From: a virus
Lineage: Duplodnaviria; Caudoviricetes
Direction: 5' to 3' (one strand)
Length of the DNA stretch: 59,840 nt
IMG/VR virus record: IMGVR_UViG_3300012041_000024
Location: 1-59,840 of that record
Below the pieces are notes generated by a model. That model did no database searches, had not been told where the DNA came from, and saw nothing but the letters and a program-made list of their open reading frames with translations. Positions 18,034-38,862 of this stretch are shown in pieces. Both the position numbers and the translations under genes were made by a program. Position 1 is the first letter of the stretch, and every line of letters begins with the position of its first letter.

Positions 18034-18059
18034 TCTACCCTCATCGGAACAGGAGAAAC

Positions 18060-18908
18060 GTGACTATCACGAACGGCGAATCTCGACACATCTTGCAAAC
18101 GGTGGCCGTCGACTACTGGCAGCCCGAACCGCGTGTCGTGGGGAAGCTCCCGCGGGTGTGGTGCAAAGCGTGCCGCGACAACAAGCAGCGGCGGCACTGC
18201 GATCAGCATCAGATCATCAAGTGTCCGGACTGCAAGCAGAACATCACGTCCGGTCATCTGCACCTCGACTATGTCGGGCACGCCGACGTGAACCGGGTGT
18301 TGACGATGATCGACCCGTTGTGGAATTGGGAGCCGTGCGGGTTCACCGAAGACGGCCAGCCGGTGATGACGATCCGCTCGAACAAGAAACTCGTCATGTG
18401 GGGACGCCTCACTTTGCACGGCGTTCCCCGGTTGTGCGTCGGGACGTGCGATCTCGACAAAGAGGAAGCCGACAAAGAGATCGTCGGTGATCTGATCCGC
18501 AACGGGGCGCTCAGACACAACGTGTACGGCGGGCTGTGGAGCAAGTCCGAGGGCGCGGACTTCGATCACGTCATCGACCCGCCCGTCGTTACGCCGATCT
18601 CAGCGGAGACGCAACGACTCTTGCAGCCGATCGTCAGCGATGACCCGGTGGGGACGCCGTCGACGTTGGACGATCGTCGCGGCATCAAGGCGCTCGTGCA
18701 GGATCTCTCAGAGAATCAGCAACTCGATCTGCGCTCGTGGTGCGTCGATCGTGACATCGCGATCACGCTCAGCGGGCAGGTGCCGCAAGCGACGACAGTC
18801 GAGCAGTGCATCGCGATCCGTGACTACATCGTCACGATGGGCGACGACGAACCGATGTACCCAGGGACAGCAGCAGTCATTGATCAATCGCTGCCGCTCG
18901 AAGCCTGA
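18060..18908 (+). CDS. Rad52/Sak-like single-strand annealing protein with zinc-finger insertion
   Basis: LDYVGHADV..IDPLWNWEP..KEIVGDLIRNGALR; CKAC/CPDC; AGGAG RBS. Confidence 0.7.
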   Translation: MTITNGESRHILQTVAVDYWQPEPRVVGKLPRVWCKACRDNKQRRHCDQHQIIKCPDCKQNITSGHLHLDYVGHADVNRVLTMIDPLWNWEPCGFTEDGQPVMTIRSNKKLVMWGRLTLHGVPRLCVGTCDLDKEEADKEIVGDLIRNGALRHNVYGGLWSKSEGADFDHVIDPPVVTPISAETQRLLQPIVSDDPVGTPSTLDDRRGIKALVQDLSENQQLDLRSWCVDRDIAITLSGQVPQATTVEQCIAIRDYIVTMGDDEPMYPGTAAVIDQSLPLEA

Positions 18909-18912
18909 ACGC

Positions 18913-18954
18913 GAGTGTGCCCCCGACGGGCTTGTGCGGGGGCACACTCTGTTT
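18913..18954 (+). terminator. intrinsic terminator-like hairpin
   Basis: GAGTGTGCCCCCG/CGGGGGCACACTC stem followed by TGTTT. Confidence 0.65.
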
Positions 18955-19148
18955 GCGTCTCAACTTCGGAGGAAGTCGTGAGATGGACACTCTAACGCGC
19001 GGAGCGTCGCGCGAGCTACTGTTGCACGTCACATCAAAAACGACGAAGGCCGGGCGACGAACCCGACCTCCGTCAAGAGCAGCCTGTAAGGGAGGCGCTA
19101 CATGACAAACCATACACGTACGCACGCCGAGCGAAACCTCGGTTCGCT

Positions 19149-19892
19149 ATGAGTCTGCTGTGGATGGGTCAAGCATGGTCGATCGACTTCGGGTCGACGC
19201 CACGGAAGATGATCGCTCTCGCGATCGCCGACTGCCATAACGAGGAAACGAACCGCTGTTTCCCTGGCGCGGAGCACATCTCTCGGAAGGTCAATCTCGA
19301 AGTCGGCAACGTACGCCGACATATCGCGACGTTGATCGAAGAGGGCTGGCTCGCGAAAGACGACCGAAACTACCGGCGAGGGGACCGATGGTTCGACGAA
19401 CTCGACGCGCAGAATCGCGCGTTCGACGCGCGGAATCGCGCGCCTGAACGCGCGGAATCGCGCGCCAAAGCGCGCGGAACTGCGCGCGTAATCAGAAAAG
19501 AACCCGAACTAGAACCCGAAGCAGAATCTACCGCTGCTGTTCGCAGCGAAGTCGTCGAGCGTGACCCGGTTCATGACCTCGTGAAGATGGCGTGGGACAA
19601 ACGCGTCGCCGACGGCAAACCCAGACCGGCGCTCAGAACCGACGGGAAGGGCAACCCGTTCATGGCGCTCGTCGGCATCGCGCGGCAGTTGGTCGACAGC
19701 GGGCACCCGGCGCAAGACATCGGCTTAGCGATCTACGACAACGGGCCGGTATGGACGATGGCGGCGTTGCAGTTGACGCTCGCCCGATTACAAGAGGGCC
19801 GACCGAACGATCGTCGACTCGCAGGAATGATCCGGGACAACAAGCTCGACGCTGAAGTCGTCGATATCAACCGAGTGATGGGGTGGTCCTAA
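19149..19892 (+). CDS. replication initiator (HTH_36-like N-terminus)
   Basis: KMIALAIAD..CFPG..I..V.RHI..LIEEGWL; internal iterons. Confidence 0.8.
   Translation: MSLLWMGQAWSIDFGSTPRKMIALAIADCHNEETNRCFPGAEHISRKVNLEVGNVRRHIATLIEEGWLAKDDRNYRRGDRWFDELDAQNRAFDARNRAPERAESRAKARGTARVIRKEPELEPEAESTAAVRSEVVERDPVHDLVKMAWDKRVADGKPRPALRTDGKGNPFMALVGIARQLVDSGHPAQDIGLAIYDNGPVWTMAALQLTLARLQEGRPNDRRLAGMIRDNKLDAEVVDINRVMGWS
19406..19486 (+). repeat. four iterons CGCGCGGAATCGCGCG, probable replication origin
   Basis: Copies start at 19406, 19427, 19449, 19471 (spacing 21/22/22); followed by an A-rich tract. Confidence 0.75.
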
Positions 19893-20422
19893 TGGCGTCT
19901 GAAGAATGCGTACAACGAGCCGTCGAACTGATGTTGGCGTCGGCGCGTGAGCGGTACCGATCGGCGAAAGAGGACGCGGTTCGTATCGCTGCGTTCCGAT
20001 TCGCGTTGCAGAAGTTCATCGACGCGTCGGTGTCGGCTGCTGCCGCGGAGTGGATCACGACGATGGACGTGATGCCGTCGGTGCATGAGTTCGTCGAACT
20101 GGCTCGCAAGCACGCGAATCTGATCGCTGACAGCCGCGCGATTTCTCCGGCGTCGGAAGCATCGCAGACGTACCCGATCGGGAAACCCGGCCGTGAAGGG
20201 TTGGCGGCGCAGATCGTGATGCTCCGCATGATGCGCGCCGTCGCGGAGCAGTGCCCGCAAGGATTCTGGGGACGCTTGGTGTACGGCAACGACTGGCGTC
20301 ACGCGACGCTGCAACCCGAAGCCGGACGCGAAGAACGGATACGGGCGTACACGACGATCGCGTACGAGCAAGCCGTCGACTTCGAAGACTCGACGCTCAC
20401 ATGGGATCGGTGGCCGTACTGA
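19892..20422 (+). CDS. putative helicase loader/inhibitor
   Basis: Directly after initiator (TAATG overlap); W....PSVHEF pattern. Confidence 0.45.
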   Translation: MASEECVQRAVELMLASARERYRSAKEDAVRIAAFRFALQKFIDASVSAAAAEWITTMDVMPSVHEFVELARKHANLIADSRAISPASEASQTYPIGKPGREGLAAQIVMLRMMRAVAEQCPQGFWGRLVYGNDWRHATLQPEAGREERIRAYTTIAYEQAVDFEDSTLTWDRWPY

Positions 20423-23852: not shown

Positions 23853-24262
23853 CCCGCGAGTTGAAGTTCTTCGTCGAGGGCTCCCCGGTGGCGCAAGGCA
23901 GCAAGCGCGCGATGACGAACCGCAAGACGGGTCAGCCGTACATGATCGAGGACAACGCGGGCCCGCTACGGAAGTGGCGACGCGCGATCCGCGACGAGGC
24001 ACGAGCGCATCGAGAGTCGTGGACGAAGCAAGCGCCGCTGCACTGCGGGCTGCGTTTCGTGCTCGAACCGAAGTTCTCGACGCACGTCGTCGGCGAGTGG
24101 GCTGTCACCGGGTTCGATGTCGACAAACTGACGAGGGCGGTGTTCGATGGGCTCACCGATGGGGGAGCGATCATCGACGACGCGCAGATCGTGAAGCTGA
24201 CGACGTCGAAGGTCTGGGGTCGCCCGTCGGGCGTGTCCGTCATCCTGCGAGACGTGGTGTAG
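23849..24262 (+). CDS. rusA: RusA-like Holliday junction resolvase
   Basis: PVAQGSK, DVDKLTRAVFDGL, DDAQIV. Confidence 0.92.
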   Translation: MTRELKFFVEGSPVAQGSKRAMTNRKTGQPYMIEDNAGPLRKWRRAIRDEARAHRESWTKQAPLHCGLRFVLEPKFSTHVVGEWAVTGFDVDKLTRAVFDGLTDGGAIIDDAQIVKLTTSKVWGRPSGVSVILRDVV

Positions 24263-24307
24263 CCGTGTATCTTGTAGTCACGTATCGACGCATCGGAAGA
24301 GGCATAA

Positions 24308-24664
24308 ATGGGACTGGTTCACAAGGGCCGCGAGGTCACCGGCTACGGGATCAAAGTGACGAACGCAGGCGACGGGCTCAGCAAGTCGATGAAGATCACG
24401 CCGCGCGAGTTGCAGATGGGCGACCGCGGCATGATCGTGATCGAGTACGTCGTCGCGAACGCCGGTGATTACGAACCGGCGATCAAAGCCGACTACTTCG
24501 GCCCGCTGAAAGAGATCATGAAGTTGAAGGCCGAAGCGGCGTTCTTCCTCGACGACAAGCGTGTCGCCGCTCAGATGGACAAACACAAGGCGGCGTTGGC
24601 GAAAGAACGTGAGATCGAGGGTCAGCAGTCACTCGAAGACGACATGGACAAGGACGAAGAATAA
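24308..24664 (+). CDS. hypothetical phage protein
   Basis: GAGG RBS; coding-like codon usage. Confidence 0.65.
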   Translation: MGLVHKGREVTGYGIKVTNAGDGLSKSMKITPRELQMGDRGMIVIEYVVANAGDYEPAIKADYFGPLKEIMKLKAEAAFFLDDKRVAAQMDKHKAALAKEREIEGQQSLEDDMDKDEE

Positions 24665-24922
24665 ATGGGCAGCAGTGCAGTAACCGAACGGGTGAAGATG
24701 ACCGACGCGCAGCGCGCCGCGCTGATGAAACGCCTCGTGCGTGTGCGTACGAAAGTCGACGGTCATCTGACCGCGGCGGAGACGTTGAAAGCGCAGCGCT
24801 TCGCGCTCGCTGAGCAAGCGAAAGCGGCGGGCGTGACGAACAAGGACATCGCCGACGCGCTCGGCATGACAATCCCCGGCGTCGTCAAGCTGATCGAACG
24901 CGGACGCGCGAACGGTGAGTAA
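24665..24922 (+). CDS. HTH DNA-binding protein
   Basis: GVTNKDIADALGMTIPGVVKLI. Confidence 0.75.
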   Translation: MGSSAVTERVKMTDAQRAALMKRLVRVRTKVDGHLTAAETLKAQRFALAEQAKAAGVTNKDIADALGMTIPGVVKLIERGRANGE

Positions 24923-25661
24923 ACCGAAAGCGATCTCGGAACAACTCGACGTGGCCGTGACGAAGATCGCGTCGTTGACGCCGCACCCGCGGAACTACCG
25001 CGGCCACCCCGACGATCAGATCGAGCATCTGATGCGCTCGATCCAGGACTACGGGTTCTACCGCAACGTCGTCGCGTGCACAGACGGGACGATCCTCGCG
25101 GGGCACGGCATCGTCATCGCCGCCGAACGACTCGGCATGACCGAAGTCCCGGTCGTGTTCTTGATGCTCGACCCGAACGAGCCGCGCGCCCTGAAAGTGC
25201 TCGCGCTCGACAACTACGCGTCGCACCTCGCCGAAGACGACGACCGGATGCTGACGGATATGTTGCGGGAGATTCAGCAGGCCGACGATCTGATGGGGAC
25301 AGGCTTCGACGAGATCTCATTGGCGGCGTTGATGATGATCACGCGCACCGCGGCAGAGGTACGAGACTTCGACGCCGCCGCGGAATGGGTCGGTCTACCG
25401 GAGTACGTCGACCGGAACACCCGTAACTGGCGGGCGATCATCGAGTTCGACGACGAAGCGCAACGCGAACGGTTCCTCGAACTCGTCGATCTCGTCGTCG
25501 TGCAAGGCACGAGCGACGGCATGACGCGCTCGTATCGTTGGGACGAAATCCCCGGCAGCGCGCGACGAACGCCTATCTCGACGCTACGTTTCGGAGTGGA
25601 AGATGACGACAGTGACGACGCCGCGGTATCCGATCTACATACCGTCGAAGGGTCGGGCTGA
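24915..25661 (+). CDS. ParB/Srx-like N-terminal domain protein
   Basis: LTPHPRNYR.H..QI..SI..YGF..ILAGHG..A..LG..VPV..DN. Confidence 0.88.
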   Translation: MSKPKAISEQLDVAVTKIASLTPHPRNYRGHPDDQIEHLMRSIQDYGFYRNVVACTDGTILAGHGIVIAAERLGMTEVPVVFLMLDPNEPRALKVLALDNYASHLAEDDDRMLTDMLREIQQADDLMGTGFDEISLAALMMITRTAAEVRDFDAAAEWVGLPEYVDRNTRNWRAIIEFDDEAQRERFLELVDLVVVQGTSDGMTRSYRWDEIPGSARRTPISTLRFGVEDDDSDDAAVSDLHTVEGSG

Positions 25662-26514
25662 CGCCTGCTTGACGGCGAACATCTTCGTCCGCGACGAAGT
25701 CGACTTCCGTCTCGTCGTCGAAGAACAAGAACACGACGACTACGCAGCGCGCTACGGCGACGAGCGCGTGCTCGTGCTGCCGTTCGCGAATCTCGGGCAA
25801 GGCTCGATACCGGCGCGTAACTGGATCAAGGAACACTCGATCGAGCACGGCGCGAAACGTCACTGGCAGTTCGACGACAACATCAGAGGCTTCGCCCGCA
25901 CGTTCCGCGGTCGTCGCGTCCCGATCCATTCCGGTCTGTCGACGAGCATCATCGAAGACTTCACTGATCGGTACACGAACATCGCGATCAGCGGGTTCAA
26001 CTATCGCTGCTTCGTGATGAACCGACGAGTGATCTCACTGAACTGTCACGTCTACTCGGCGACGCTCGTGCTCAACGAGATCCCGTACAAGTGGCGCGGC
26101 CGCTACAACGAAGACACCGACTTGTGTCTGCAAGCACTCGCCGGTGGCTGGTGCACGGTGCTCGTCTCGGCGTTCACTGTCGACAAGATCCCGACGATGA
26201 TGATGAAAGGCGGCAACACCGCCGAGTTGTACGTCGGCGACGGCCGCTTGAAGATGGCGAGAGCGCTCGAACGTATGTGGCCGGGAGTCGTCGAAGTGAA
26301 ACGACGCTTCGATCGACCGCAGCACGTCATCGTCGCGAACTGGCGCAAGTTCGACACGCCGCTACAGCGCCGCACTGACATCGAGTGGCCGACCGGGATC
26401 GACGAGTACGGCATGACGCTGCATCAGACAGCAGTATCAGAGCACCCACGGATCAAAGAAATCCTGTCGGCTCATAATGCGTTGGTCAGCGATAACCGTC
26501 CCGCCTCGGGATAA
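25603..26514 (+). CDS. TET-associated glycosyltransferase (TAGT/GREB1-like), putative DNA base modifier
   Basis: YPIYIPSKGR, ARNWI, WQFDDNI, YNEDTDL, MKGGNT motifs. Confidence 0.8.
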   Translation: MTTVTTPRYPIYIPSKGRADACLTANIFVRDEVDFRLVVEEQEHDDYAARYGDERVLVLPFANLGQGSIPARNWIKEHSIEHGAKRHWQFDDNIRGFARTFRGRRVPIHSGLSTSIIEDFTDRYTNIAISGFNYRCFVMNRRVISLNCHVYSATLVLNEIPYKWRGRYNEDTDLCLQALAGGWCTVLVSAFTVDKIPTMMMKGGNTAELYVGDGRLKMARALERMWPGVVEVKRRFDRPQHVIVANWRKFDTPLQRRTDIEWPTGIDEYGMTLHQTAVSEHPRIKEILSAHNALVSDNRPASG

Positions 26515-26548
26515 TCCGAAAGATTTCCCGAGAAATCTACGGTTTGAG

Positions 26549-26578
26549 TTGATACCCGTGTATCAGTGTGGCTACATT
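26549..26578 (+). promoter_or_regulatory. sigma-A-like promoter overlapped by perfect operator TGATAC-CCGT-GTATCA (26550-26565)
   Basis: TTGATA-18 nt-TACATT. Confidence 0.7.
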
Positions 26579-26584
26579 GAGCCT

Positions 26585-27000
26585 TGTTGGAAGTGCTCCC
26601 CCGGCCACAGAGGCTTGTGCAGGGACTTTCTCACCGGGCGACCCTGGCCCGTCAACGTGATTGGGATGCGTAGCCACAAGGGCTTCGATAAGTCAAAGCT
26701 TGCAGCGATAAGCGCTGGCGACGACACCGAACGGGTGCGTCAACGAACAACGAACGACAAGATCGAAGCAGTGAAGCTGCCGAACAACCTCAGCCGACAC
26801 CTTGCGTGTGACGGGGAGCGGGGAATCACGGTGTAGTAACTGCAACGAAGCGTGAGCGGAACGAGCCGCGACGCTGCTGCAACGCAGCGCACGCACGAAG
26901 CGAGCAGTAAGAGCCGCTGAGGCAGATCCCCCGATCGGCGGGGGCGAGGGACGGATGAGCCCGGGAGAAGAAACCTCAAGTAACACTGCTGCTCGCTCGA
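26585..27000 (+). ncRNA. candidate large structured RNA / leader of unknown class
   Basis: Many helices, including long-range GCTCCCC(26595)/GGGGAGC(26813) and AGCGAGCAG/CTGCTCGCT; A-rich loops; no credible CDS. Confidence 0.6.
26851..26898 (+). repeat. structured RNA motif copy 1 (GTGAGCG..2 hairpins..CACGCACGA)
   Basis: CGTGA-GCGG/CCGC-CGCTGC/GCAGCG-CACGCACGA. Confidence 0.7.
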
Positions 27001-27025
27001 CTCGAATCAACAACGGAGGGAACAC

Positions 27026-27196
27026 ATGAACCGAGACACCCAAGCCGCATTCGATGCCGCCAAGGCGCTACTCGCCCGCAAGGATGCCCGTAAGACGAGG
27101 GCACAAGAACGAGCACAGATGATCGCTGCATCGAAGGCGAAGAACGAAGCGGCGAAGGCCGCTCGGATCGCCGATAAGCATGGCGTCGTCGGATGA
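27026..27196 (+). CDS. small basic Ala/Lys-rich protein (56 aa)
   Basis: GGAGG RBS; MNRDTQAAFDAAKALL... Confidence 0.7.
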   Translation: MNRDTQAAFDAAKALLARKDARKTRAQERAQMIAASKAKNEAAKAARIADKHGVVG

Positions 27197-27342
27197 GGCC
27201 GGTGACGCGAGAGCAGTACGAGCGCTGCTCGCAGATGCTCGAAGACTCGAAAGCTGGCGACGTCAGCTACTCACCGGAAACGCTCGACATTCTTCGAGCG
27301 AACGTCCGACTCTACGAACAGCAGCATCGATACTCAGCGTGA
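27193..27342 (+). CDS. hypothetical protein (49 aa)
   Basis: ATGA overlap; MRPVTREQYERC... Confidence 0.55.
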   Translation: MRPVTREQYERCSQMLEDSKAGDVSYSPETLDILRANVRLYEQQHRYSA

Positions 27343-27386
27343 GCGGTAACAGCCGCGGCAGTGGTGCGAACCCACTGCACGCACGA
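27338..27386 (+). repeat. structured RNA motif copy 2
   Basis: CGTGA-GCGG/CCGC-GCAGTGG[TGCGAAC]CCACTGC-ACGCACGA. Confidence 0.7.
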
Positions 27387-27432
27387 CGCACGTCAACTGT
27401 GCGATCACCCAAACAACTCATCGGAGGAAACA

Positions 27433-28215
27433 GTGAGCAACACAGAGCAAGAACAACGAGCAGCCGCCCGCACGGAGCGGATCAACACCGTCAACGCCGA
27501 ATGGCGTGCGCTGCAAGCGTGGCGCAAGGGCGGCGAGGTCGGCGAACGGCCCGAAACCCCGAACGTCGACATGATCCAAGACGAAGCGTTCAAGCCGATC
27601 CGGCTGAGCGTCGACCGCCCCGCCAAGGGGACACGGACGCCGAAAGCGTCTGAGCCGCTGATCTTCACGATCAACGGCAAGCCGGTGCGCTCGAACGTCA
27701 ACTCGTTCGGCGAACTGTCGTGGTCGGGCACGAAGAACCTCGTCGGCGACGCGGTGCGGGTCAAGCCCGCCGAGTTGGTGGCGATCCTGCAAGAGCAGCA
27801 CGACATCGAGAACCCGCGCTTCACTGCATGGGGTCCGGTGACGCTGAGCAACGGCGTGACACTGCAGGTCTGCAAAGTCGACGAGAACGGCGAGCCGGTC
27901 GGACTCGTCGCGACGACTGCTCAGCGCATCGCGAAAGCCGAAGTCGAGATCGAAGCGAACCTCGCAGCGATCGACAAAGTCGTCGCCGAGCGCACGCCGG
28001 TGGTTCTGCCGGTGCTCGAAGAACTGATGGCGCCGATCGTCGGAACGCCGAAGCGTCAGCGTGCGTCACGCTCGAAGGAAGCGGTCGCCGAGCGCGCCGC
28101 GGCGAAAGCAGCGAAGGCCGAAGCGAAAGCAGCGGCGCCGAAGTTGCAGCCCCGCAAGGCGAACAAGCCAGTCGTCGGGATCAAGCCCCCGACCAGCCGC
28201 CGCAAGGCAAGCTGA
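27433..28215 (+). CDS. hypothetical protein with Lys/Ala-rich histone-like tail
   Basis: GGAGG RBS then GTG; basic C-terminus. Confidence 0.7.
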   Translation: MSNTEQEQRAAARTERINTVNAEWRALQAWRKGGEVGERPETPNVDMIQDEAFKPIRLSVDRPAKGTRTPKASEPLIFTINGKPVRSNVNSFGELSWSGTKNLVGDAVRVKPAELVAILQEQHDIENPRFTAWGPVTLSNGVTLQVCKVDENGEPVGLVATTAQRIAKAEVEIEANLAAIDKVVAERTPVVLPVLEELMAPIVGTPKRQRASRSKEAVAERAAAKAAKAEAKAAAPKLQPRKANKPVVGIKPPTSRRKAS

Positions 28216-28379
28216 TGAACACGATCAAGATTTACGTCGACGATCAACTGATCCTCGAACTCAACGATCCGATGGTTCCGTCGAGTCGTCGAGTGCAGTG
28301 TCACAACCGACTCCCGCAAGCGTTCGAGCGTGAGCGATTGGCCGAGCGCTATTACGAGCTAGAGAACGGAGGTTTGTGA
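28215..28379 (+). CDS. hypothetical protein (54 aa)
   Basis: TGATG overlap. Confidence 0.55.
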   Translation: MNTIKIYVDDQLILELNDPMVPSSRRVQCHNRLPQAFERERLAERYYELENGGL

Positions 28380-28429
28380 GCGTGTCAGGTTCAAGCCTGC
28401 GCCCCGGTGCGAAGCCGGGGCACGCACGA
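28375..28429 (+). repeat. structured RNA motif copy 3
   Basis: TGTGA-GCG..CAGG[TTCAAG]CCTG-CGC-CCCGG[TGCGAAG]CCGGG-GCACGCACGA. Confidence 0.7.
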
Positions 28430-28475
28430 CCCGCTGTCACACTGACAGCGGACAATCAACAACGGAGGAATCATC

Positions 28476-29573
28476 ATGGGTCATCTATTCGACAGCGGGT
28501 TCAGCGTCCGAGAGCCGATGTGGCACGGACTCGGGAACGTCATCGACGCCTACCCCGAGAATTGGGACGCGGCCCGCAAGTTCGCCGGTATCGAGTGGGA
28601 ACCGAAAGTCGTGCCTGCGTACATCAAGCTCGACGCCCCTCGCTTCGAGGCGGTCACGCAGTGCGGAGCGTGCAACGCTCACGCCGGTTCGATCGATCAA
28701 GCGACGAACGAGTTCGAGTGCGTCGCCTGCGGGCATCGCACGCCGCCCGCGCTCACTGAGTTCGTGCGAGTCGAGAACACGAACATCGTCACTCGCGACG
28801 ACACGAACTACCCGTTCGGTCCGGTCACCGACACGTTCGCCCCGGTGCTCAACGCCCAACTCGGCGAGATCATCGAAGCGGTGCTCGGCGAGACGAACGT
28901 CAAGTTGGAGACGCTGATCTCGTTGAAGCACGGCGCGCTGATCTCTGCGCTCGTGTATCTCGACGAGCCGTACAGCGTCGCCGGTGATGACACGCAGACG
29001 TACCCGTTCTTCTCACTGTCGAACGCGCATGACGGCAGCGCAGCGCTTCGTGCGCTGTTCACCGCGATCCGCATCGTCTGCTGGAACACGTACAGCGGTG
29101 CGCTCGCCTCCGCGGAGCGCGATCATTCGCTCTACACGTTCCGCCACGTCGGCAACGTCGCCGAACGCATCGAGGAAGCGAAGAACGTCCTGTCGAACTT
29201 GCGGGCCGACAACGCCGAGTGGCGCGAACTCGCCGACGACCTGTTCAAGCTGCCCGCTCGGGCCGCCGAAGTGAAGACGTTCACCGAACTGTTCTTGGCT
29301 GCTCCCCCAGCCGGAACGTACAGCGATCGAGTCGCGGCGAACATCGACCGTGACCGTGCGATCTTCACGAAGCTGTACGAAGAGTCGTACACGACAGAGT
29401 CGCACCGCGGCACCGCGCTCGGCTTGGTCGACGCCGCAGTCGAATACCTCGACCATGTCCGCGGCTTCCGCAACGCCGACACGAAGTTCGGCCGCTCGCT
29501 GCTGCGTCAAGAGCCGCTGAAAGCGAAAGCCGTGTCGCTCGTGCGTGAGATCTGCACGATCGGAGCGAACTGA
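28476..29573 (+). CDS. DUF932 (TIGR03299-like) protein with zinc-ribbon insertion
   Basis: REPMWHGLG, NAHDGS, RIVCWNT, FRH, AVEYLDH motifs. Confidence 0.85.
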   Translation: MGHLFDSGFSVREPMWHGLGNVIDAYPENWDAARKFAGIEWEPKVVPAYIKLDAPRFEAVTQCGACNAHAGSIDQATNEFECVACGHRTPPALTEFVRVENTNIVTRDDTNYPFGPVTDTFAPVLNAQLGEIIEAVLGETNVKLETLISLKHGALISALVYLDEPYSVAGDDTQTYPFFSLSNAHDGSAALRALFTAIRIVCWNTYSGALASAERDHSLYTFRHVGNVAERIEEAKNVLSNLRADNAEWRELADDLFKLPARAAEVKTFTELFLAAPPAGTYSDRVAANIDRDRAIFTKLYEESYTTESHRGTALGLVDAAVEYLDHVRGFRNADTKFGRSLLRQEPLKAKAVSLVREICTIGAN

Positions 29574-29588
29574 CAGCACACGCACATT

Positions 29589-29632
29589 CAAGGCCCGTAC
29601 CGATCCGTCGGTGCGGGCCTTGTTGCGTTTTC
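29589..29632 (+). terminator. intrinsic terminator
   Basis: CAAGGCCCGTACCGA/TCGGTGCGGGCCTTG stem plus T-rich tail. Confidence 0.8.
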
Positions 29633-29648
29633 CATCAAGCACGCTCGG

Positions 29649-29665
29649 TGATACGCGTGTATAAT
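29649..29665 (+). promoter_or_regulatory. promoter (-10 TATAAT) overlapped by operator TGATAC-GCGT-GTATAA
   Basis: Consensus TATAAT at 29660-29665; 1 mismatch to the operator. Confidence 0.7.
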
Positions 29666-29714
29666 GTCAGTGGTGTTCGGCAAACTGTCGGCACGAACGA
29701 GGAAGGAAACACGC

Positions 29715-30041
29715 ATGGAAATACACACGACAACCGACCCGGCGATCTACCGGAGGGCGCTCGAAGTGCTCGCGCACAACCGATACGTCGTCGTCGAACG
29801 CGACGGCAACATCGTCGACACAAGCGTTCTGCAAGACGGCGACACGCTGCTCGCCGAAGTCGTGCCTGAGGGCGTCGGCTCATGCGACGTGTGCGGGTTC
29901 AGCGTCGAGCACGACGTACACGACGGACAGATCTTCGAGGCCGCCGATGATGACAGCGAATACTTCGAATACCTCGACAAGAAACAAGCGAAGCACGACG
30001 AGTGGCTGATCTCAGCCGAAGCACCGGAATGGGGGTTCTGA
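29715..30041 (+). CDS. acidic hypothetical protein
   Basis: GAGGAAGG RBS; CDVC motif. Confidence 0.65.
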   Translation: MEIHTTTDPAIYRRALEVLAHNRYVVVERDGNIVDTSVLQDGDTLLAEVVPEGVGSCDVCGFSVEHDVHDGQIFEAADDDSEYFEYLDKKQAKHDEWLISAEAPEWGF

Positions 30042-30997
30042 TGAGCGTCAACAACAACAGCAAGATCATCCGTGAACTCGTCGCGGAGATCCGCGACACG
30101 CCGGGGTTCATGTGCTCGCAAGAGGGCGCGCACATGAAAGTCCACGGACCGGACGGGCGCACGACGACGATCAAAGTCGGCCTCGGTTCCCGCAAAGGCA
30201 AAGACGACTACGACATCAGGCGCCAGCTACGCAACTTCGTCGGCTGGCCGCCGACGACGGTCGGGCGTGCGCTGCACAAGGCGACGGCGTCAGATCCGGC
30301 GCCGGATCTCGTGCTCCCCGGCCTGACGCTCGTACCGAAGACTGCGCCACCGACGAAAGCGAAGGCAAAGCCCATGACAGCGTTTGAGAAGCCGCCTACG
30401 CCGCTGCCAGCACCGGCCGCGGTGAATACGAGTCGGCAGCGAGCCGCCTACCCTGCGCCCGTCTCATGGACGCAGGCGGTGTATCTGCACTTGCAGCGCT
30501 TCGCCGGAGCCGAACTCGACTTCGAGCAGATCATCCAGGCGGTGCCGCCGCGCGATCACGGCATGGCGACATCGTCGGCGTCGCCGATCTTGTCGTCTCG
30601 CTGGCTCGACGCCCAAGAGGGCGACGTGTACTTGTGCGTCGCTCGTCGCCGCGTCGCTCGCGGCTTCGTGTACTGGTTCACCGAAAGCCCGCGTCGGCCG
30701 GAGCGGCGTGATGACTCGAAGCGCGGCGAAGAACCGAAGCCGGTGATCCCTGAGCCGAAGCCGGAGCCGCCGCTCGTGATCCCCGAGCGTGAGCCCGATC
30801 GGCCGGTCGTGCCTGAGCCGGAAGACCCGCCGAATCTGTTCGAGCGCATCGGCGAGATCCGCTCCGGTGAGCTACTGCTCAGCGACGAGCACGGCGATAT
30901 CTGGACCGCTCAACGGGCGCGGTTCGTGAGAGTTATGGAACAAGATCTGATCCGCGACGATCGCGGCGGACTATGGCGCAAGCCGGAAAGCGAGTGA
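30041..30997 (+). CDS. multidomain protein: HicA-like N-terminus, wHTH-like middle, Pro-rich linker
   Basis: GAHMKVHGPDGRTTTI; PEPKPEP repeats. Confidence 0.5.
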   Translation: MSVNNNSKIIRELVAEIRDTPGFMCSQEGAHMKVHGPDGRTTTIKVGLGSRKGKDDYDIRRQLRNFVGWPPTTVGRALHKATASDPAPDLVLPGLTLVPKTAPPTKAKAKPMTAFEKPPTPLPAPAAVNTSRQRAAYPAPVSWTQAVYLHLQRFAGAELDFEQIIQAVPPRDHGMATSSASPILSSRWLDAQEGDVYLCVARRRVARGFVYWFTESPRRPERRDDSKRGEEPKPVIPEPKPEPPLVIPEREPDRPVVPEPEDPPNLFERIGEIRSGELLLSDEHGDIWTAQRARFVRVMEQDLIRDDRGGLWRKPESE

Positions 30998-31001
30998 CGC
31001 A

Positions 31002-31262
31002 GTGACCGATCTATCGAGCGACCCGACGTTTCATTGGGAGGATTTCCATAACGCAGGCGAACCCGCGTGCAGGCACGCCGAAGTGCGGGCGTTCGCAGCG
31101 GATGATCCTGAGAACTCGTGGGCGCACTGCTCGTTCTGCGAGGCGGATCTCACCGATCAGTGGTGGGCCGGTCGCGAGTCGCTGCGACACGACTACGCGT
31201 TGATGCCGAACACGTTGTCGCATGTTGTGCAGATCTTCTACCGGAAGGCGGTCGCGTCGTGA
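31002..31262 (+). CDS. hypothetical Zn-binding protein
   Basis: CRH..CSFC. Confidence 0.5.
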   Translation: MTDLSSDPTFHWEDFHNAGEPACRHAEVRAFAADDPENSWAHCSFCEADLTDQWWAGRESLRHDYALMPNTLSHVVQIFYRKAVAS

Positions 31263-31555
31263 CGCGGCTGTTGAGTTGCCCGACGTGCGGGGTGACGACG
31301 GCGACGAACGATTCGTGGTCGTCAGGGCAGTGCGATTCGTGTTTCGACGCGGAGACGCAAGCGCTCGCTCGGGCGTACATCGCGAAGCCGCACAGCCGGT
31401 GGCGTCAGGAGATGTGGGCGTACCGTGTTGCGTTCGTCATCGGCGGCGTGCTGCTGCTGTGGGTCTCGTTCACTGACAAGAGACAAGAGCGGGTACCGAC
31501 GGCGATAGATCCGTGTGCGCTCGTCGTCACGGCCGATGGGGCGCGGTGTCGATGA
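31259..31555 (+). CDS. Zn-finger membrane protein
   Basis: CPTC..CDSC plus TM helix; GTGA overlap. Confidence 0.5.
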   Translation: MTRLLSCPTCGVTTATNDSWSSGQCDSCFDAETQALARAYIAKPHSRWRQEMWAYRVAFVIGGVLLLWVSFTDKRQERVPTAIDPCALVVTADGARCR

Positions 31556-31556
31556 G

Positions 31557-31751
31557 ATGGCGTACACGGTGAAGTTCACGATCGAGAACCAGGATCGGGA
31601 CACGCATCACGTCATCACGACGCGCTGCAAGAACGGCGAAGCGGCGGGAGTGATCACGTCGTTTCATTGGTCGGAGCGACCGCCGGGGACGATCACGTAC
31701 ATGGTCCGATACCCGGACCTACAACCACAACAACAACGGAGGAAACGATGA
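31557..31751 (+). CDS. hypothetical protein
   Basis: Fills operon gap. Confidence 0.45.
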   Translation: MAYTVKFTIENQDRDTHHVITTRCKNGEAAGVITSFHWSERPPGTITYMVRYPDLQPQQQRRKR

Positions 31752-32068
31752 GCAGAAGCTATTTCATGGAGTCGTTCAGCGTGCAGAAGTTCGGGTCGCG
31801 CGTCGAGGTCAACGTCGTCTCCGATGTCGGCTCGACGATGAGAATCACCGCGCAGCAGACCGCGCAGATCCTCGCGCAGATGGCGACAGTCGACCACGAC
31901 GCTGTGGTCGTCGCCTTGTTGATTGCGTTACGCAACGAGCGCCGCGGCACTGAGCAGAGCGTAGGGGCGCTCTGGGTCGCTCTGGTGAACACGTACGACA
32001 ACTGGCGCCGCGAGCGACTGTCATACGAGACGACTCCGGCGGCGACGACGTCGCAGGCGCGAAGATGA
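31748..32068 (+). CDS. hypothetical protein
   Basis: CAACAACGGAGG RBS. Confidence 0.6.
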   Translation: MSRSYFMESFSVQKFGSRVEVNVVSDVGSTMRITAQQTAQILAQMATVDHDAVVVALLIALRNERRGTEQSVGALWVALVNTYDNWRRERLSYETTPAATTSQARR

Positions 32069-32370
32069 GCGGCGTGGCATGGGTGATGCGAGTTTTGGAG
32101 GTGAACACCGAGAACGGCGCGGCCTGGTCGGACGATCCGATGTGGATCGCCGGGTTCGACGTCGACGAGTTCGACGGCCGCGGCTCGGTGGAGTACACGT
32201 TCGACGTTCGCACGGCGTATCGCTTCGCGACGATCGACGACTTGTTCGATGCGTGGACGATGCAGTCGCAGGTCAAGCCGCGGCGTACGGACGGGCTACC
32301 GAACAAGCCGCTGACAGCGATCACGATCGCGGCGGAACAAGTCCACGACGAGAGGTATGATCAGCGGTGA
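32065..32370 (+). CDS. hypothetical phage protein
   Basis: RTDGLPNKPLTA motif; ATGA overlap. Confidence 0.65.
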   Translation: MSGVAWVMRVLEVNTENGAAWSDDPMWIAGFDVDEFDGRGSVEYTFDVRTAYRFATIDDLFDAWTMQSQVKPRRTDGLPNKPLTAITIAAEQVHDERYDQR

Positions 32371-32478
32371 CCTTCCGATGAGGTCGGGTAGAAGTTGCGA
32401 ATGAACGGGTCGACTCAGGATTCGCCTCCACGGTCGGCCCGTTCTTCGCGTTTTGCTATACGCGCTATCATCCGGTCC

Positions 32479-32727
32479 GTGTTCTGTATTTCGTGCTCGT
32501 CGCCGCTCGACGCGGGCGTGACGCGCCTCGCGGAGTCGTTGGGCGCGCAGCGGGTGATCTGCGCCGCTTGTCTGGCGTTGTACGCGGAGCGGCCGGAGTC
32601 GGTGGTGCAGATGAACGTCCGTATCCCCGTCGAGTTGGACGCCGAGCTTCGTGAAGCGGCTCGTGAGTCGCGTGTGCCGTACGCGAAGATCGTCCGTGAC
32701 CGCCTACAGCGAGTGAGCCAGGTATGA
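32479..32727 (+). CDS. Zn-finger + ribbon-helix-helix protein (leaderless GTG)
   Basis: TATCATCCGG upstream; CISC..CAAC; QMNVRIPVELDAELREAA. Confidence 0.6.
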   Translation: MFCISCSSPLDAGVTRLAESLGAQRVICAACLALYAERPESVVQMNVRIPVELDAELREAARESRVPYAKIVRDRLQRVSQV

Positions 32728-33389
32728 GCGGGCGTGGGCATTCGTCGCTGAATAAGCCCGTCGGCCGCGACGAGAACGGCGAGATCATCACGGCGCGTGA
32801 CCGGATCTTGGCGTGGGTCGCCAGCGGTATCCCGTACGACACGTCGGTGCTCAGAGCCGGGGTGGGGTTGGTGACGGTGCATAGCTGGCTGCGGGAAGCG
32901 GCCCGCGCCGAAGAGTTGACGATGACGAACCCGTCTCACAAGCTGACGCCGTATCAGCGGGATCTCATCGTGTTCTCGCATCAGTTGGAACACGCGAAAG
33001 CGGAGGGCGAAGCGAAGTTCCACGAATCGATGCAAGCCATCGCGCACGGCAACTTGTCGCAGGTCACGACCACACTCAAACTCGTCGAAGACCCGACGTC
33101 GAACGGCGACGCCCGTACTGGCACTCCGGCCGGTTGGCGCGTCGTGGAACGCACAGTGAAAACGGAGCGGACGCTGCCGCATTTCGCTGCTCTGCGGTGG
33201 GTGTTGGAGAACCGCTACGGCCGGAAACTGCCGACGGAGTTGGTGTGGCGCGACACGATCTCGGGCACCCTGTCAGACGACGAAGGCGTCGACGTCTTGA
33301 TCGCCGGTGCGGAAGCGTATTTGGAGCAGCGCGCCGCCGCGATCGAAGCGACGTCGACCGAGTCGAACGGCTCGAATGGATCTCACTGA
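32724..33389 (+). CDS. terminase small subunit (putative)
   Basis: HTH-like N-terminus; AALRWVLENRYG; immediately before TerL. Confidence 0.65.
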   Translation: MSGRGHSSLNKPVGRDENGEIITARDRILAWVASGIPYDTSVLRAGVGLVTVHSWLREAARAEELTMTNPSHKLTPYQRDLIVFSHQLEHAKAEGEAKFHESMQAIAHGNLSQVTTTLKLVEDPTSNGDARTGTPAGWRVVERTVKTERTLPHFAALRWVLENRYGRKLPTELVWRDTISGTLSDDEGVDVLIAGAEAYLEQRAAAIEATSTESNGSNGSH

Positions 33390-35043
33390 GCAAGACGCCC
33401 TCGATCGCCTCGCGGCGTGGTTCGCTACTCGTTCCGATGACGAGGTGTTGGCGTATCTGACGAACGAAGTCCCTCGACTTGGCTTCGCCGCGCGTCGCCG
33501 GATCGAGCGCACGCTCGGGCATCGCTTGGCGGTCGGCGTGCGCGCGGAGCCGTTCACGCTCGCTCGTCACGTCCATCAGGAATGTTTGGATGCAGGGGTG
33601 CCGGATTGGCCGGAATCGGTCGAAGACTGGCCGTATGTTCGCTATCTGAGCCGTGAGATCTCCGAGACGATGACGAACGGCGGGCGACTGTGCATTTCGC
33701 TCCCGGCGCAGGTCGGTAAGTCGTTCTGGACGCGGCTCGGCGTGTTGTGGCGTCTCGACGCGCGACCGGATCGACGGGTGATCTATCTCGGCTACTCCGA
33801 TTCCCCCGCCGAAGAGGCGAGCTTTTTCATGCGTGAAGTCGTACGCGCCGCGGGCCCGAAACTGTCGTTCACGTTGCGGCAGGATTCGCAGAGCAGACAC
33901 AGATGGTTGACGGATCAGGGCGGCGGCATTCTCGCGACGGGTATCGGCGGCGGCGTCGCAGGCTTCGGCGGCAGCGTTGTCGTCGACGACCCGTTGAAGA
34001 ACTGGCAAGAGGCGCACAGCCCCGCGCGCCGTGAGTACGTGTGGAACGAGTTGCGCGCGGTGATCTCGCTGCGACTCGCGGAGGACGACTTCCTCGTGGT
34101 GTGTCACACGCGGTGGCACAAGGAAGACCCGACGGGGAAACTCGAACAGTTCGTGAAAGAAACCGGCGCGCCGTGGAAGTTCATCCGTCTCCCGATGACC
34201 GCCGAAGAGCACGACCCGATCGGCCGAGCTCCCGGCGAGGTGTTGGCGCCGGGCCGGTACTCGAAGGCGTACGTCGAAGCCCGCAAAGAACTGCTCGGCA
34301 GCTATCTGTGGTCGGCGCTCGAACAGCAGAAACCGGCCGAAGAGGAAGGTCTGTTGGTGAAGCGGGCGTGGTGGCAGTGGACAGCGACGCCGATCTCAGA
34401 TGCCGACGAATGGCTGACGAGCACTGACACGAAGATGAAGGACCGCACCGGCGGGAGCTACGTCGTGACGCAAGCGTGGGGCCGGATCGGGAACACGTTT
34501 CACTGCGTCGATCAGATGCGCGGCCAATGGTCGCAAGCCCACGCACGAGTCGCCCTCGCCTTGATGCAGCATCGCCACCCACAGATCAATCAGCACCTTG
34601 TGGAAAACGCCGGGTACGGCCCCGAGATGATGGAAGTACTCAGGGACGGCGACCCGCAATACGTACTCAGCGACGACATGGCCGGTGAACTCGGCGTCAC
34701 CCACTACGAACGAGCAGCCGTCGAGCAGATTCTTCGCGACGGATTGCCTGGCCTGATACCTATAACGCCGAAAGCGAGCAAAGAGGTCCGAGCACGTGCG
34801 ATCACCCCGCTCATCGAAGCAGGCAACGTGTTCCTCGTCGAAGGCCAACCGTGGGCCGACCAACTCGTCGACGAGTGGGCACATTTCCCAGAGCCGCCGA
34901 ATGACATCGTCGACACCACCTCCCAAGCACTCAGCAGACTCCGCCACGGCGACACAGTGAGCGCAGCACCACCAACCGCAGAACTACCCCGCCAACGACC
35001 GATGCGAGTACCGAACGCCATCGGCTCCATCCCCCGCCACTGA
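33376..35043 (+). CDS. terminase large subunit
   Basis: Walker A ISLPAQVGKS; Walker B VVVDDPLKN; HTRWH; nuclease VENAGYG, SKEVRA, DIVDTTSQAL. Confidence 0.95.
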   Translation: MDLTEQDALDRLAAWFATRSDDEVLAYLTNEVPRLGFAARRRIERTLGHRLAVGVRAEPFTLARHVHQECLDAGVPDWPESVEDWPYVRYLSREISETMTNGGRLCISLPAQVGKSFWTRLGVLWRLDARPDRRVIYLGYSDSPAEEASFFMREVVRAAGPKLSFTLRQDSQSRHRWLTDQGGGILATGIGGGVAGFGGSVVVDDPLKNWQEAHSPARREYVWNELRAVISLRLAEDDFLVVCHTRWHKEDPTGKLEQFVKETGAPWKFIRLPMTAEEHDPIGRAPGEVLAPGRYSKAYVEARKELLGSYLWSALEQQKPAEEEGLLVKRAWWQWTATPISDADEWLTSTDTKMKDRTGGSYVVTQAWGRIGNTFHCVDQMRGQWSQAHARVALALMQHRHPQINQHLVENAGYGPEMMEVLRDGDPQYVLSDDMAGELGVTHYERAAVEQILRDGLPGLIPITPKASKEVRARAITPLIEAGNVFLVEGQPWADQLVDEWAHFPEPPNDIVDTTSQALSRLRHGDTVSAAPPTAELPRQRPMRVPNAIGSIPRH

Positions 35044-37674: not shown

Positions 37675-38453
37675 TCGATGTTGATGCGATCCCGTTCGTG
37701 CAAGCTCGCTGGTACACACCGGCGAACCGCACCGAGTTCGGGCACGTCGTTTTGCACACGATGGAGTTCTGGGAACGCGGCGACTCCGCGGAGTGGTGCC
37801 AACAGTTCTTCGCCACATCGGATCGTAAAGGCTCGACGCATTGCATGGTCGACTGCGACAGCATCTGCCGCTCTGTGCTCGACAAGGACGTGTGTTGGGG
37901 AGCGAACGGCGTCAACCGCTCAGGGTTGCACATCGAGCACGCCGGGTTCGCGGCGCAGACCGCACCGGATTGGCAAGACGACTACTCGACTCGGATGCTC
38001 ACCTTGTCTGCGGAGTTGACGGCGTCGTGGTGTCTGAAGTATTCGATCCCCGCAGTCTTCGTCGACGCCGCAGGGTTGATCGCCGGTCGTCGTGGGATCA
38101 CGACGCACGCCGAAGCCGAGATCGCGTTCCCGTACGGTGGGCACACCGACCCCGGCGTCGAGTTCCCGATGACGGCGTACGTCAAGCGTGTGAACGAACT
38201 GTTGTATCCCCCGATCATCACGAAAGAGGTTGAGATGTTCATGCTCGTAGGTCCGCTCGGCGACAACGACGGGGTGTTCCTCGTCGACGTCGCAACAATC
38301 AGATGGGTGCAGTCGGGCCACGAACTCGGCATCTTGCGTCAGGCGGGTGTGGCGTCGGTGACGGCGACGGTCGAGAAGATCGGCGTGATGCGCTACGCGC
38401 GTACACCGTTCGGGCCGTCGCCGACGTCCGGTTCGTTCGTCGGTTTGTGGTGA
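37671..38453 (+). CDS. N-acetylmuramoyl-L-alanine amidase (endolysin, Amidase_2)
   Basis: VVLHTME, STH, N..GLHIE, ITTH, HTDPG..FP. Confidence 0.9.
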   Translation: MIDVDAIPFVQARWYTPANRTEFGHVVLHTMEFWERGDSAEWCQQFFATSDRKGSTHCMVDCDSICRSVLDKDVCWGANGVNRSGLHIEHAGFAAQTAPDWQDDYSTRMLTLSAELTASWCLKYSIPAVFVDAAGLIAGRRGITTHAEAEIAFPYGGHTDPGVEFPMTAYVKRVNELLYPPIITKEVEMFMLVGPLGDNDGVFLVDVATIRWVQSGHELGILRQAGVASVTATVEKIGVMRYARTPFGPSPTSGSFVGLW

Positions 38454-38686: not shown

Positions 38687-38862
38687 TGGAGTTATCGCTT
38701 GATATCCGCTGCTTGGCCGATGAATTCGGACACCAGGTGCGGGGCAACATGGAACGCACCGAGGACGGGCACTTGCGGTTCGACTTCTACTGCTCGCAAT
38801 GCCCTGGCCCTGTGTTCATCGAGGGATTACCCCGTCCGGCTGCTGTTGTGGAGCAGCCATGA
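38683..38862 (+). CDS. small Zn-binding protein
   Basis: C....GH..CSQC. Confidence 0.5.
   Translation: MMELSLDIRCLADEFGHQVRGNMERTEDGHLRFDFYCSQCPGPVFIEGLPRPAAVVEQP

Follow-up and report, generated by a model that had tools for sequence, protein, structure and literature searches.

A probable family of tRNA-like RNA elements at gene junctions of actinobacteriophage operons, with a possible role in mRNA punctuation

Why should three genes of one phage operon be preceded by the same folded leader, whose stems keep their pairing as their letters change? The question arises from the IMG/VR virus record IMGVR_UViG_3300012041_000024, which at its full length of 59,840 bp (CheckV completeness 100%) is the window analysed here. 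An earlier note on this DNA described an RNA junction motif in three copies between positions 26851 and 28476, and proposed that it might be a tRNA-mimic processing site, a put-like antiterminator or a protein-binding switch. We find that the copies very probably represent a selected, tRNA-like structured RNA family, and that the tRNA-mimic idea is the best-supported reading of their role.

Fold and covariation of the three leaders

Each copy reads A-GCGUG (the 5' strand of helix P1), one nucleotide, a 4-bp helix P2 with a hexaloop, two nucleotides, a 6-bp helix P3 with the loop UGC(G)AAN, CACGC (P1') and a tail, ACGA. The copies are three-way junctions in which P3 is stacked directly on P1. 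Downstream of the tail, each continues through a hairpin (P4) and an A/C-rich linker to a GGAGG Shine-Dalgarno (SD) site and a start codon. The parts are as follows.

26849..26898, + strand: copy 1, long form, 73.4 bits; P1 26850-26854/26890-26894, P2 26856-26859/26866-26869 (loop AACGAG), P3 26872-26877/26884-26889 (loop UGCAAC), tail ACGA 26895-26898
26900..26986, + strand: P4 domain of copy 1, an 87-nt branched insert closed by the 8-bp stem GCGAGCAG/CUGCUCGC; fold z -2.3
27015-27019, + strand: SD site of copy 1, with linker AUCAACAACGGAGG and ATG 27026
27336..27386, + strand: copy 2, long form, 78.5 bits; P1 27337-27341/27378-27382, P2 27343-27346/27353-27356 (loop UAACAG), P3 27359-27364/27372-27377 (loop UGCGAAC), tail ACGA 27383-27386
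27387..27432, + strand: rest of the copy 2 leader, with P4 hairpin 27387-27403 (CGCACG/UGUGCG, one G-U pair) and a CA-rich linker
27423-27427, + strand: SD site GGAGG of copy 2, with GTG start 27433
28379..28429, + strand: copy 3, long form, 74.5 bits; P1 28380-28384/28421-28425, P2 28386-28389/28396-28399 (loop UUCAAG), P3 28402-28407/28415-28420 (loop UGCGAAG), tail ACGA 28426-28429
28431..28475, + strand: rest of the copy 3 leader, with P4 hairpin 28431-28451 (CCGCUGUCA-CAC-UGACAGCGG) and linker ACAAUCAACAAC
28464-28468, + strand: SD site GGAGG of copy 3, with ATG 28476

The places given by the earlier note hold: the pattern GTGAGCG..ACGCACGA has three matches against 0.08 expected, and none of 100 shuffles reaches three. 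The stems that it named (CGCTGC/GCAGCG, (G)CAGTGG/CCACTG(C) and CC(CC)GG/CCGG(GG)) are right, as are its start codons at 27026, 27433 and 28476, with GGAGG sites at 27015, 27423 and 28464. It had also taken the TGA of copies 2 and 3 for the upstream stop codon. This stands, in that 27340-27342 ends the open reading frame (ORF) 27193-27342, and 28377-28379 ends the ORF that stops at 28379; the TGA of copy 1 terminates no listed ORF of at least 25 aa. The proposed closure of a three-way junction corresponds to a real closing stem, GCGUG/CACGC. Two points need amendment. The GTGAGCG anchor is present in all copies, but its register in copy 3 is off by 4 nt (P1 starts at 28380, after the TGA), and the likeness there reads as a coincidence of that offset. 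The layout of hairpin, hairpin and stem holds, but what was called the third stem of copy 1 is an 87-nt domain, and the P3 loop of this copy has only 6 nt.

The evidence for the fold is comparative. Single-copy folding energies are not distinctive: z runs from an unremarkable -0.6 to -3.1 (the latter for the whole leader of copy 3), and the minimum-free-energy fold of copy 1 recovers the three-way junction. When the three copies are aligned, all 45 pair cells are standard and 6 of the 15 pairs change on both sides (2 of 4 in P2, 4 of 6 in P3). The observed value is matched by none of 500 shuffles; when the 3' partners are slid by one to three columns, only 20-51% of cells pair. A covariance model (CM) built from the three copies (R1) scores 73-78 bits on them and 17 bits on the next-best match in the window. 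Copies 1 and 3 share the identical 14-mer AUCAACAACGGAGG.

A single unit of about 3 kb, bounded by a promoter-like site at 26549 and a strong terminator at 29589, contains all three copies; its order is leader (with a possible 56-aa ORF), copy 1, two small ORFs, copy 2, the 260-aa and 54-aa ORFs, copy 3, DUF932 and terminator.

26549..26578, + strand: promoter-like site TTGATA-18-TACATT, in a 510-nt non-coding gap of lower G+C after the glycosyltransferase gene
26666..26836, + strand: possible small ORF of 56 aa, uncertain; starts at an internal ATG of ORF 26477-26836 and ends 13 nt before copy 1
27026-27196 and 27193-27342, + strand: small ORFs of 56 aa and 49 aa without family match; the TGA of the second overlaps P1 of copy 2
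27433-28215, + strand: 260-aa protein with the motif WGPVTLSNGVTLQ and an Ala/Lys/Pro-rich tail
28215-28379, + strand: 54-aa ORF that follows the 260-aa gene
28476..29573, + strand: DUF932 gene, last of the unit (PF06067, E 4.6e-31; phrog_1221)
29589..29622, + strand: intrinsic terminator, a 15-bp stem then UUGCGUUUUC, which ends the unit

The site at 26549 probably starts the transcription unit of all three copies. It is the sole sigma-70-like match in 24000-34000 (one against 1.6 expected, which is weak by itself), and the other scan, of 1-20000, found none (together the scans covered 1-20 kb and 24-34 kb). By codon position, the G+C of the uncertain ORF 26666-26836 is 0.60/0.44/0.68, resembling the unit's other small ORFs. 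At the far end, a perfect TATAAT stands at 29660-29665, 38 nt past the terminator, and 29589-29665, directly after DUF932, looks like an operon boundary and restart.

A syntenic relative keeps the fold with other letters. A search for terminase loci gave five distant loci, and a copy is present in only one of them (L155), which belongs to IMGVR_UViG_3300037119_007415 (59,284 bp; terminase identity 45%; hereafter G001). Here the gene for a protein homologous to the 260-aa one (32% identity; WGPVTLSNGVTLQ is common to both), a 102-nt gap, a DUF932 gene (37% identity) and a terminator follow one another. The gap reads GGGUG - GCUGGCAGGCAU - UCCACG UUCGAGC CGUGGA - CACCC - ACGA - hairpin - CGACAACAAGGAG - AUG. 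Compared with the window copies, P1 has undergone a compensatory change from C:G to G:C, and all six P3 pairs differ; over P1 and P3, the window and G001 copies are paired in 44 of 44 cells, and 7 of 11 pairs are compensatory. The 260-aa protein (27433-28215 in the window, 45-656 in L155) shares an invariant WGPVTLSNGVTLQ block and a basic Ala/Lys/Pro-rich tail, its family being unassigned. Because its contig ends (L162 1-130 and L155 1-130) overlap by about 125 bp, the G001 record is probably a complete genome, circularly permuted or terminally redundant, despite its linear label.

Protein searches added little to this pair. A single-protein locus search with DUF932 gave no loci, and the DUF932 alignment found nothing in genome_contigs. 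With the 260-aa alignment, viral_contigs yielded only G001, and metagenome_contigs one distant locus (L185) without the element. Two weak CM matches were rejected, one inside a coding region (L164 1503-1555) and one read as antisense within coding sequence (G001 9648-9687).

A wider family in actinobacteriophages

Rather than a three-copy peculiarity of one phage, as the earlier note had it, the motif is a member of a widespread actinophage family: searches by pattern, blastn and covariance model (the last as the note had proposed) turned up homologues and covariation in IMG/VR contigs and in the phages Damien and Joe. From the window and G001 we generalised the pattern GSGTG, 16-28 nt, TKCGAR, 7 nt, CACSCACGA, which was searched as its reverse complement and gave 35 loci in viral_contigs. 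A second model (R2), made from the three window copies and G001, has 24 matches at 29-48 bits in 18 of the 35 loci; the remaining 17 are chance matches, mostly within coding sequence. Family members are found in about 15 viral contigs.

The shared plan starts with an acceptor-like stem of 5 bp, goes on with either a P2 hairpin or the short linker ACUGGCAGACA, and then has a T-arm whose loop is UUCGAGU and a tail that begins with AC. The common short form, of 44-47 nt, reads GGGUG - AC UGG CAG ACA - 6-bp stem - UUCGAGU - stem' - CACCC - ACGA. The window copies are the long form of this wider family, with a P2 hairpin in place of the linker. Contig 3300025875_000028 alone has six copies, each after a stop codon and followed by the hairpin CGGCGCACCGUGCGCCG, ACAGAGAGGACACC and AUG.

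Cultured phages carry the element as well. A blastn search with one short form reached 132 GenBank phage records (90 Streptomyces, 29 Mycobacterium), where most matches have no annotated feature. Mycobacterium phage Damien has eight copies (CM and scanner), all of them in intergenic gaps from gene 41 to gene 55 (37,679-43,950) and on the coding strand; the genome outside the surrounding 18-kb locus (about 50 kb of 68,386 bp, both strands) has none. They start 7-51 nt past a stop codon, 7-12 nt in six of the eight, and within this single genome P1 covaries as GGGUG/CACCC, GCGUG/CACGC, GCGCG/CGCGC, CCGUG/CACGG and GGGCA/UGCCC. At two Damien sites (L355 10978-11022 and 12294-12337) a second type of linker, GAUGGUCGAA(A), replaces ACUGGCAGACA, with only UGG in common; in the gap 13504-13632 there appears by eye to be a bare minihelix without linker, followed by promoter-like sequence. 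Streptomyces phage Joe has nine copies (CM or scanner) at successive early-operon junctions: the first, in the leader, is a long form with P2 GUGG UCAAGG CCAC, and eight short forms with the tail ACU follow. The gene annotated as gp78 on the minus strand of Joe overlies one of these tRNA-like copies and is probably not a gene. In phiC31 the scanner found no copy, and the tRNA-Thr of that phage is unrelated in sequence.

Across the family, 39 CM matches correspond to 35 distinct sequences from 18 sources, with P1 and P3 paired in 99% of 383 cells and 10 of 11 pairs compensatory. No shuffle of 500 reaches the observed value, and slid partners pair at 29-50%. Fitting this alignment to the model favours pairing, but the variety of pair types and the slid controls still argue for a real covariation signal. 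Selection at the RNA level, which the earlier note had argued from three copies, is now supported by compensatory changes in the window, in its syntenic relative and among the 35 distinct members.

These figures also bear on the question of whether the copies might be features of DNA: a stoperator-like site, a recombination boundary for cassette shuffling, or decayed remnants of tRNA genes or attP. Copies within a genome are very similar and the linker is conserved in sequence, and PMC10276819 reports intergenic stoperators in R4-type phages. Joe (L356) does have repeats of the form TGTGACAGTG(G/T)GA, sometimes in tandem, in the gaps 714-881, 1254-1350, 3296-3319, 5544-5605 and 7711-7770, and these are probably the R4-type stoperators of PMC10276819. 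However, by eye they are a separate sequence in the same gaps as the elements. Compensatory change in 10 of 11 pairs is unexpected for a duplex DNA site, all copies are on the coding strand, and those of Damien are confined to one 6.3-kb operon. We consider a DNA-level feature very improbable. As a separate observation, the P4 hairpin of window copy 3 (28431-28451) is a near-perfect palindrome, CUGUCACACUGACAG, similar in reverse complement to TGTGACA, the core of the Joe repeats, and it could double as a DNA site.

Other searches mark the edges of the family. The strict 22-base motif pattern has no match in viral_contigs, and looser patterns, TGCGAA..GCACGCACGA (30 loci) and AGCGTG..GCACGCACGA (at least 118 loci, 80 screened), remained at a baseline of 10-24 bits and are chance. 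With the generalised pattern in genome_contigs (80 of at least 120 loci screened), all but one locus stayed at or below 27 bits. The odd one (L262 399-448, minus strand), in a Longimicrobiales metagenome-assembled genome, has a three-way junction GCGUG/CACGC with a 4-bp P2, a 6-bp P3 and ACGA, scores 38 bits with R2, and could be a prophage copy or chance.

tRNA likeness and a possible role in cutting early mRNA

What kind of RNA is this? The earlier note saw a resemblance between the P3 loop and the tRNA T-loop, and T-loop letters prove to be family-wide. Among the 35 distinct sequences the loop has U in 35, then U (27) or G (8), C in 35, G (31) or A (3), and A in 35, and a G-C pair closes it in 32, although IMG/VR members were found with fixed letters in the T-loop, the 3' strand of P1 and the tail, and this conservation is partly built in. 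Copies from Damien and Joe were found by blastn and CM, free of the pattern bias (the scanner itself fixed the loop), and among them the loops are UUCGAGU, UUCAAGU, UUCGACU and UUCAACC. The window loops UGCGAAC, UGCGAAG and UGCAAC have G at the second place, and that of copy 1 is one base short. No base intervenes between P3 and the 3' strand of P1 in any of the 39 aligned copies, and the bases after P1' are A (34 of 35) and then C (35 of 35). The linker is 11 nt long in 26 of 35, keeping UGG; a small hairpin takes its place in the window, Joe copy 1, L211 and L230. Mimicry of tRNA is stronger in this family view, in which an acceptor-like stem and a T-arm are stacked with no base between them and A-C follows.

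Known classes do not account for the element. At gathering scores, Rfam 15 has no match in the whole window, and the sole low-grade matches in 26500-28600, to narK and mir-2147, have E above 1 and are away from the copies. The model of tmRNA (RF00023) gives a short form 14.5 bits, on the T-arm only, where the gathering score is 47. The earlier note called the system undescribed, and neither Rfam 15 nor our literature searches contradict it. A sigma-54-like reading of the linker letters TGGCAG was dropped, as the spacing to the GC element does not fit; to our knowledge, actinobacteria have no sigma-54. By sequence and covariation, we judge it very probable that these are members of a selected, tRNA-like structured RNA family. 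They are not tRNAs, being rejected by ARAGORN and the Rfam tRNA model. At L230 there is a 95-nt gene (402-496, minus strand) resembling tRNA-Thr(GGU) with a 28-nt insert (Rfam tRNA 43 bits; ARAGORN tRNA-Thr), which has the family's acceptor letters and ACGA tail and lies 140 nt downstream of a long-form copy (632-682, minus strand). This gene may link real tRNAs and the mini elements.

Position offers a clue to function. In the window, all three copies are upstream of genes, on the coding strand, in one promoter-to-terminator unit, and the G001 copy occupies the same junction between the 260-aa gene and DUF932. The series of hairpin, linker and SD site after the tail is found in 3 of 3 window copies, in G001, in 8 of 8 Damien copies (by eye) and in the six copies of 3300025875_000028. 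The stop codon of the upstream ORF is upstream of or within the 5' strand of P1. The P4 hairpins are not intrinsic terminators: a scan of 24000-34000 lists none at the copies, and P4 is followed by CA-rich sequence, whereas the terminator at 29589 has a U run. Taken together, the tRNA-half shape, the conserved single-stranded tail, P4 directly after it, the unstructured linker and SD site, the strict coding-strand orientation and the placement at nearly every junction of an early operon would best suit an intercistronic cassette for processing and stability.

The reading that we favour, which is quite possible although far from secure, is that these elements are tRNA-like punctuation of early mRNA, cut by the host's ribonuclease P (RNase P), RNase Z or both. 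The copies would be cis-acting RNA elements of one early or middle phage transcript. Each would mimic the acceptor/T-arm half of a tRNA, with a T-loop of the form U-(U/G)-C-R-A-N-N, P2 or the 11-nt UGG linker replacing the D and anticodon arms, and the single-stranded ACGA tail occupying the place of the discriminator base and CCA. The endonucleases of host tRNA maturation would take the elements for tRNA precursors, RNase Z cutting at the tail, RNase P 5' of P1, or both, and the polycistronic RNA would thereby be severed between cistrons. In known systems, RNase P and RNase Z both accept acceptor/T-arm minihelices. The upstream piece would retain its stop codon, and a compact 3' structure too if only the 3' cut occurs. 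The downstream piece would start a few bases before P4, which would shield its 5' end, and continue via the unstructured CA-rich linker to a strong SD site. A cut on the 3' side fits, because the upstream stop codon precedes the 5' strand of P1 or lies in it.

Several observations, besides the conservation built into the pattern search, weigh against cutting by these enzymes. The stacked helix has 5 + 6 = 11 bp, against 12 bp in tRNA. The tail is A-C-G-A in 27-28 of 35 sequences and A-C-U in 7 of 35 (Joe), and shares with the tRNA end N-C-C-A only the A and the first C. Window P2 loops have no D-loop GG, ARAGORN finds no tRNA gene in the window, and the Rfam tRNA model (RF00005) matches nothing in 26500-28600 even at an E-value limit of 10, and nothing in the short forms. 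Going by work on the Bacillus enzyme, RNase Z might be impeded by the C that is conserved after the discriminator. At copy 2, a cut by RNase P 5' of P1 would deprive ORF 27193-27342 of its stop codon, and such cuts would give upstream mRNAs 3' ends without protection. Two DUF932 relatives (L165 and L166) have GCGUGA, a long hairpin stacked on CACGC, ACGG and a hairpin, all without a T-loop, and the closest ones (L164, L168, L169 and Kozie) have other leaders; the element was not found in the leaders of L164, L168, L169, L171-L179 and Kozie, which hold promoters or other hairpins. In L164 (IMGVR_UViG_3300048834_000156) a promoter-like repeat, GTTGCA..CCGCGGTATGGTT, stands before both DUF932 and the preceding gene (1590-1640, 2400-2470).

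The same placement immediately upstream of gene starts would also suit a protein-binding site, at which a factor of the phage or host, or a tRNA-binding protein such as EF-Tu, SmpB or the CCA-adding enzyme, tunes translation or coupling of the next cistron or protects the RNA. In the manner of protein-RNA operators, the stems covary whereas loops, linker ACUGGCAGACA and tail keep their sequence, and the neighbouring gene in the window and G001 encodes the conserved protein of 260 aa, which has a basic Ala/Lys/Pro tail. However, in the window the distance from element to SD site varies from 34 to 116 nt and the SD site is outside the fold; no RNA-binding domain was found among the proteins of the unit; and Damien and Joe have the element, yet GenBank phages yield no match to the 260-aa protein, which makes that protein no general partner. 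We regard a protein site as unlikely, if worth keeping in view.

Could the freed RNAs themselves be the purpose? Excised mini-tRNA-like RNAs of about 45-50 nt might act in trans, for instance as decoys for host enzymes or defences that bind acceptor/T-arm structures; their placement at gene junctions would then be no more than a handy means of producing them in number. Many near-identical copies per genome (eight in Damien, six in 3300025875_000028), their location in early operons, and a tRNA-like shape in which the UGG linker and the T-loop may form an elbow agree with this. Without an anticodon arm, however, they would be no decoy for anticodon nucleases, and the strict coupling to the following hairpin and SD site indicates a role in cis. 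We think a trans role rather improbable; it would still require the processing proposed above, and the two are compatible.

The terminators of the unit bear on an RNA for processive antitermination or against Rho, of the HK022 put or Bacillus EAR type, that allows read-through of downstream terminators. Copy 1 is about 265 nt downstream of the promoter-like site, strong terminators end the unit in the window and in G001, and the phage genes almost all run in one direction. Yet the scan of 24000-34000 found no terminator between the copies. Up to nine copies at successive junctions in 5 kb are far beyond the need of an antiterminator, and no Rfam match was obtained. We know of no counterpart of the tRNA-like letters in put. 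Antitermination seems highly unlikely, and the put-like antiterminator or switch of the earlier note has become less likely with a cassette at up to nine successive junctions of one operon.

Returning to cleavage by RNase P and RNase Z, it is possible, and we propose it tentatively, that actinobacteriophages, in the manner of mitochondrial tRNA punctuation, punctuate early mRNAs with mini tRNA mimics, so that each cut frees a message with a hairpin at its start and each transcript releases dozens of RNAs of about 45 nt, maybe CCA-tagged or serving as decoys.

The phage, the novelty of the family and its place among known systems

The window has a G+C content of 61-66% and genes almost all on the + strand. 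Assignments with PHROGs/Pfam outside the unit are as follows.

10738: tape measure
18-24 kb: recombination/replication block, with single-strand annealing protein, O-like initiator and RusA
33307: terminase
37623: endolysin
41577: portal
46190: major head protein
24915-25661: ParB-like nuclease-domain protein (phrog_620)
25603-26514: TET-associated glycosyltransferase (PF20691, E 2.7e-40)

A second glycosyltransferase and a methyltransferase are encoded at 3044-5481, and together with the pair at 24915-26514 their presence suggests that the phage hypermodifies its own DNA. Megablast found no near-identical DNA among GenBank phages. Because the best GenBank relatives of its DUF932 protein are those of Microbacterium phages, at 34% identity, we take the virus to be a distant actinophage-like one. 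The sequencing runs listed as containing its sequence include none of RNA; the DNA runs are freshwater sediment and groundwater metagenomes, and four of these over 26500-29700 are identical at all copies, with no natural variants.

The family is absent from Rfam 15 and is apparently widespread, though unannotated, in actinobacteriophage early operons. It is not described in the literature that we found, which includes a paper on phage Joe (PMC5311408). Smith et al. 2013, or a survey that catalogues 8,495 structured RNA candidates from intergenic regions of IMG/VR (PMC10690425), might already list it. If the proposal is true, tRNA punctuation reaches beyond organelles to bacterial viruses, and phages of Mycobacterium (Cluster H type, e.g. 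Damien) and Streptomyces (R4/Joe type) have an unannotated layer of expression control. 'Empty' gaps of about 95 nt recur between the early genes of Damien-type and R4/Joe-type phages, and the regular gaps and hairpins of actinophage early operons would gain a testable reason. For those who construct operons in actinobacteria, the element would also be a small portable cassette that unites cut site, 5' stabiliser and ribosome-binding leader. Cultured carriers (Damien, Konstantine and Joe) make testing straightforward. Whatever the mechanism, a covariance model of the family would let annotators mark these sites and avoid spurious small ORFs such as Joe gp78.

Similar arrangements are known from elsewhere. 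In the tRNA punctuation of animal mitochondria, the t-elements of plant mitochondria and MALAT1/mascRNA, tRNAs or tRNA-like folds are the cleavage signals for RNase P and RNase Z, and t-elements and mascRNA are not functional tRNAs. The present elements likewise put tRNA-like folds between or after coding units. In contrast to those systems of organelles and the eukaryotic nucleus, the setting here is an operon of a double-stranded DNA phage in an actinobacterial host, only acceptor and T-arm are present, and cleavage is a proposal. The tRNA-like domain of tmRNA (RF00023) is a second parallel, in that its acceptor is set on the T-arm, the D-arm is reduced to a short linker and there is no anticodon arm; the T-arm of the short form aligns to that of tmRNA. 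However, the element has no mRNA-like domain, G-U identity pair or CCA, and occurs in many copies at gene junctions.

The early genes of T7 are separated by intercistronic RNase III sites, long irregular hairpins at which the mRNA is cut into stable, hairpin-ended units. Both systems would place structured signals between the cistrons of an early polycistronic phage mRNA, the cutting being proposed in our case, but the longest continuous helix of the element is 11 bp and it carries a T-loop.

Two further comparisons come from actinobacteriophages. According to PMC3203893, the SAS and ESAS of Cluster K are leader modules before a subset of non-structural genes, in one orientation and of unknown function, SAS being a fixed 13-mer (GGGATAGGAGCCC) next to starts and ESAS conserved 17-bp inverted repeats upstream. 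The likeness lies in repeated leader modules of one orientation with a start-adjacent element and upstream inverted repeats. Their 13-mer and arms are conserved in sequence, whereas the stems of our element covary and its fold is tRNA-like; the SAS 13-mer itself has six matches at three or fewer mismatches, against 9.0 expected, and none at the three leaders. Finally, the stoperators of Cluster A mycobacteriophages and R4-like Streptomyces phages are 13-bp asymmetric repressor sites in duplex DNA (PMC3029335, PMC10276819). They too have many intergenic copies in one orientation to transcription, and in the same R4-like phages, but the element described here is about 45-50 nt long, its stems covary, and the TGTGACAGTG-type repeats of Joe are a sequence apart from it.

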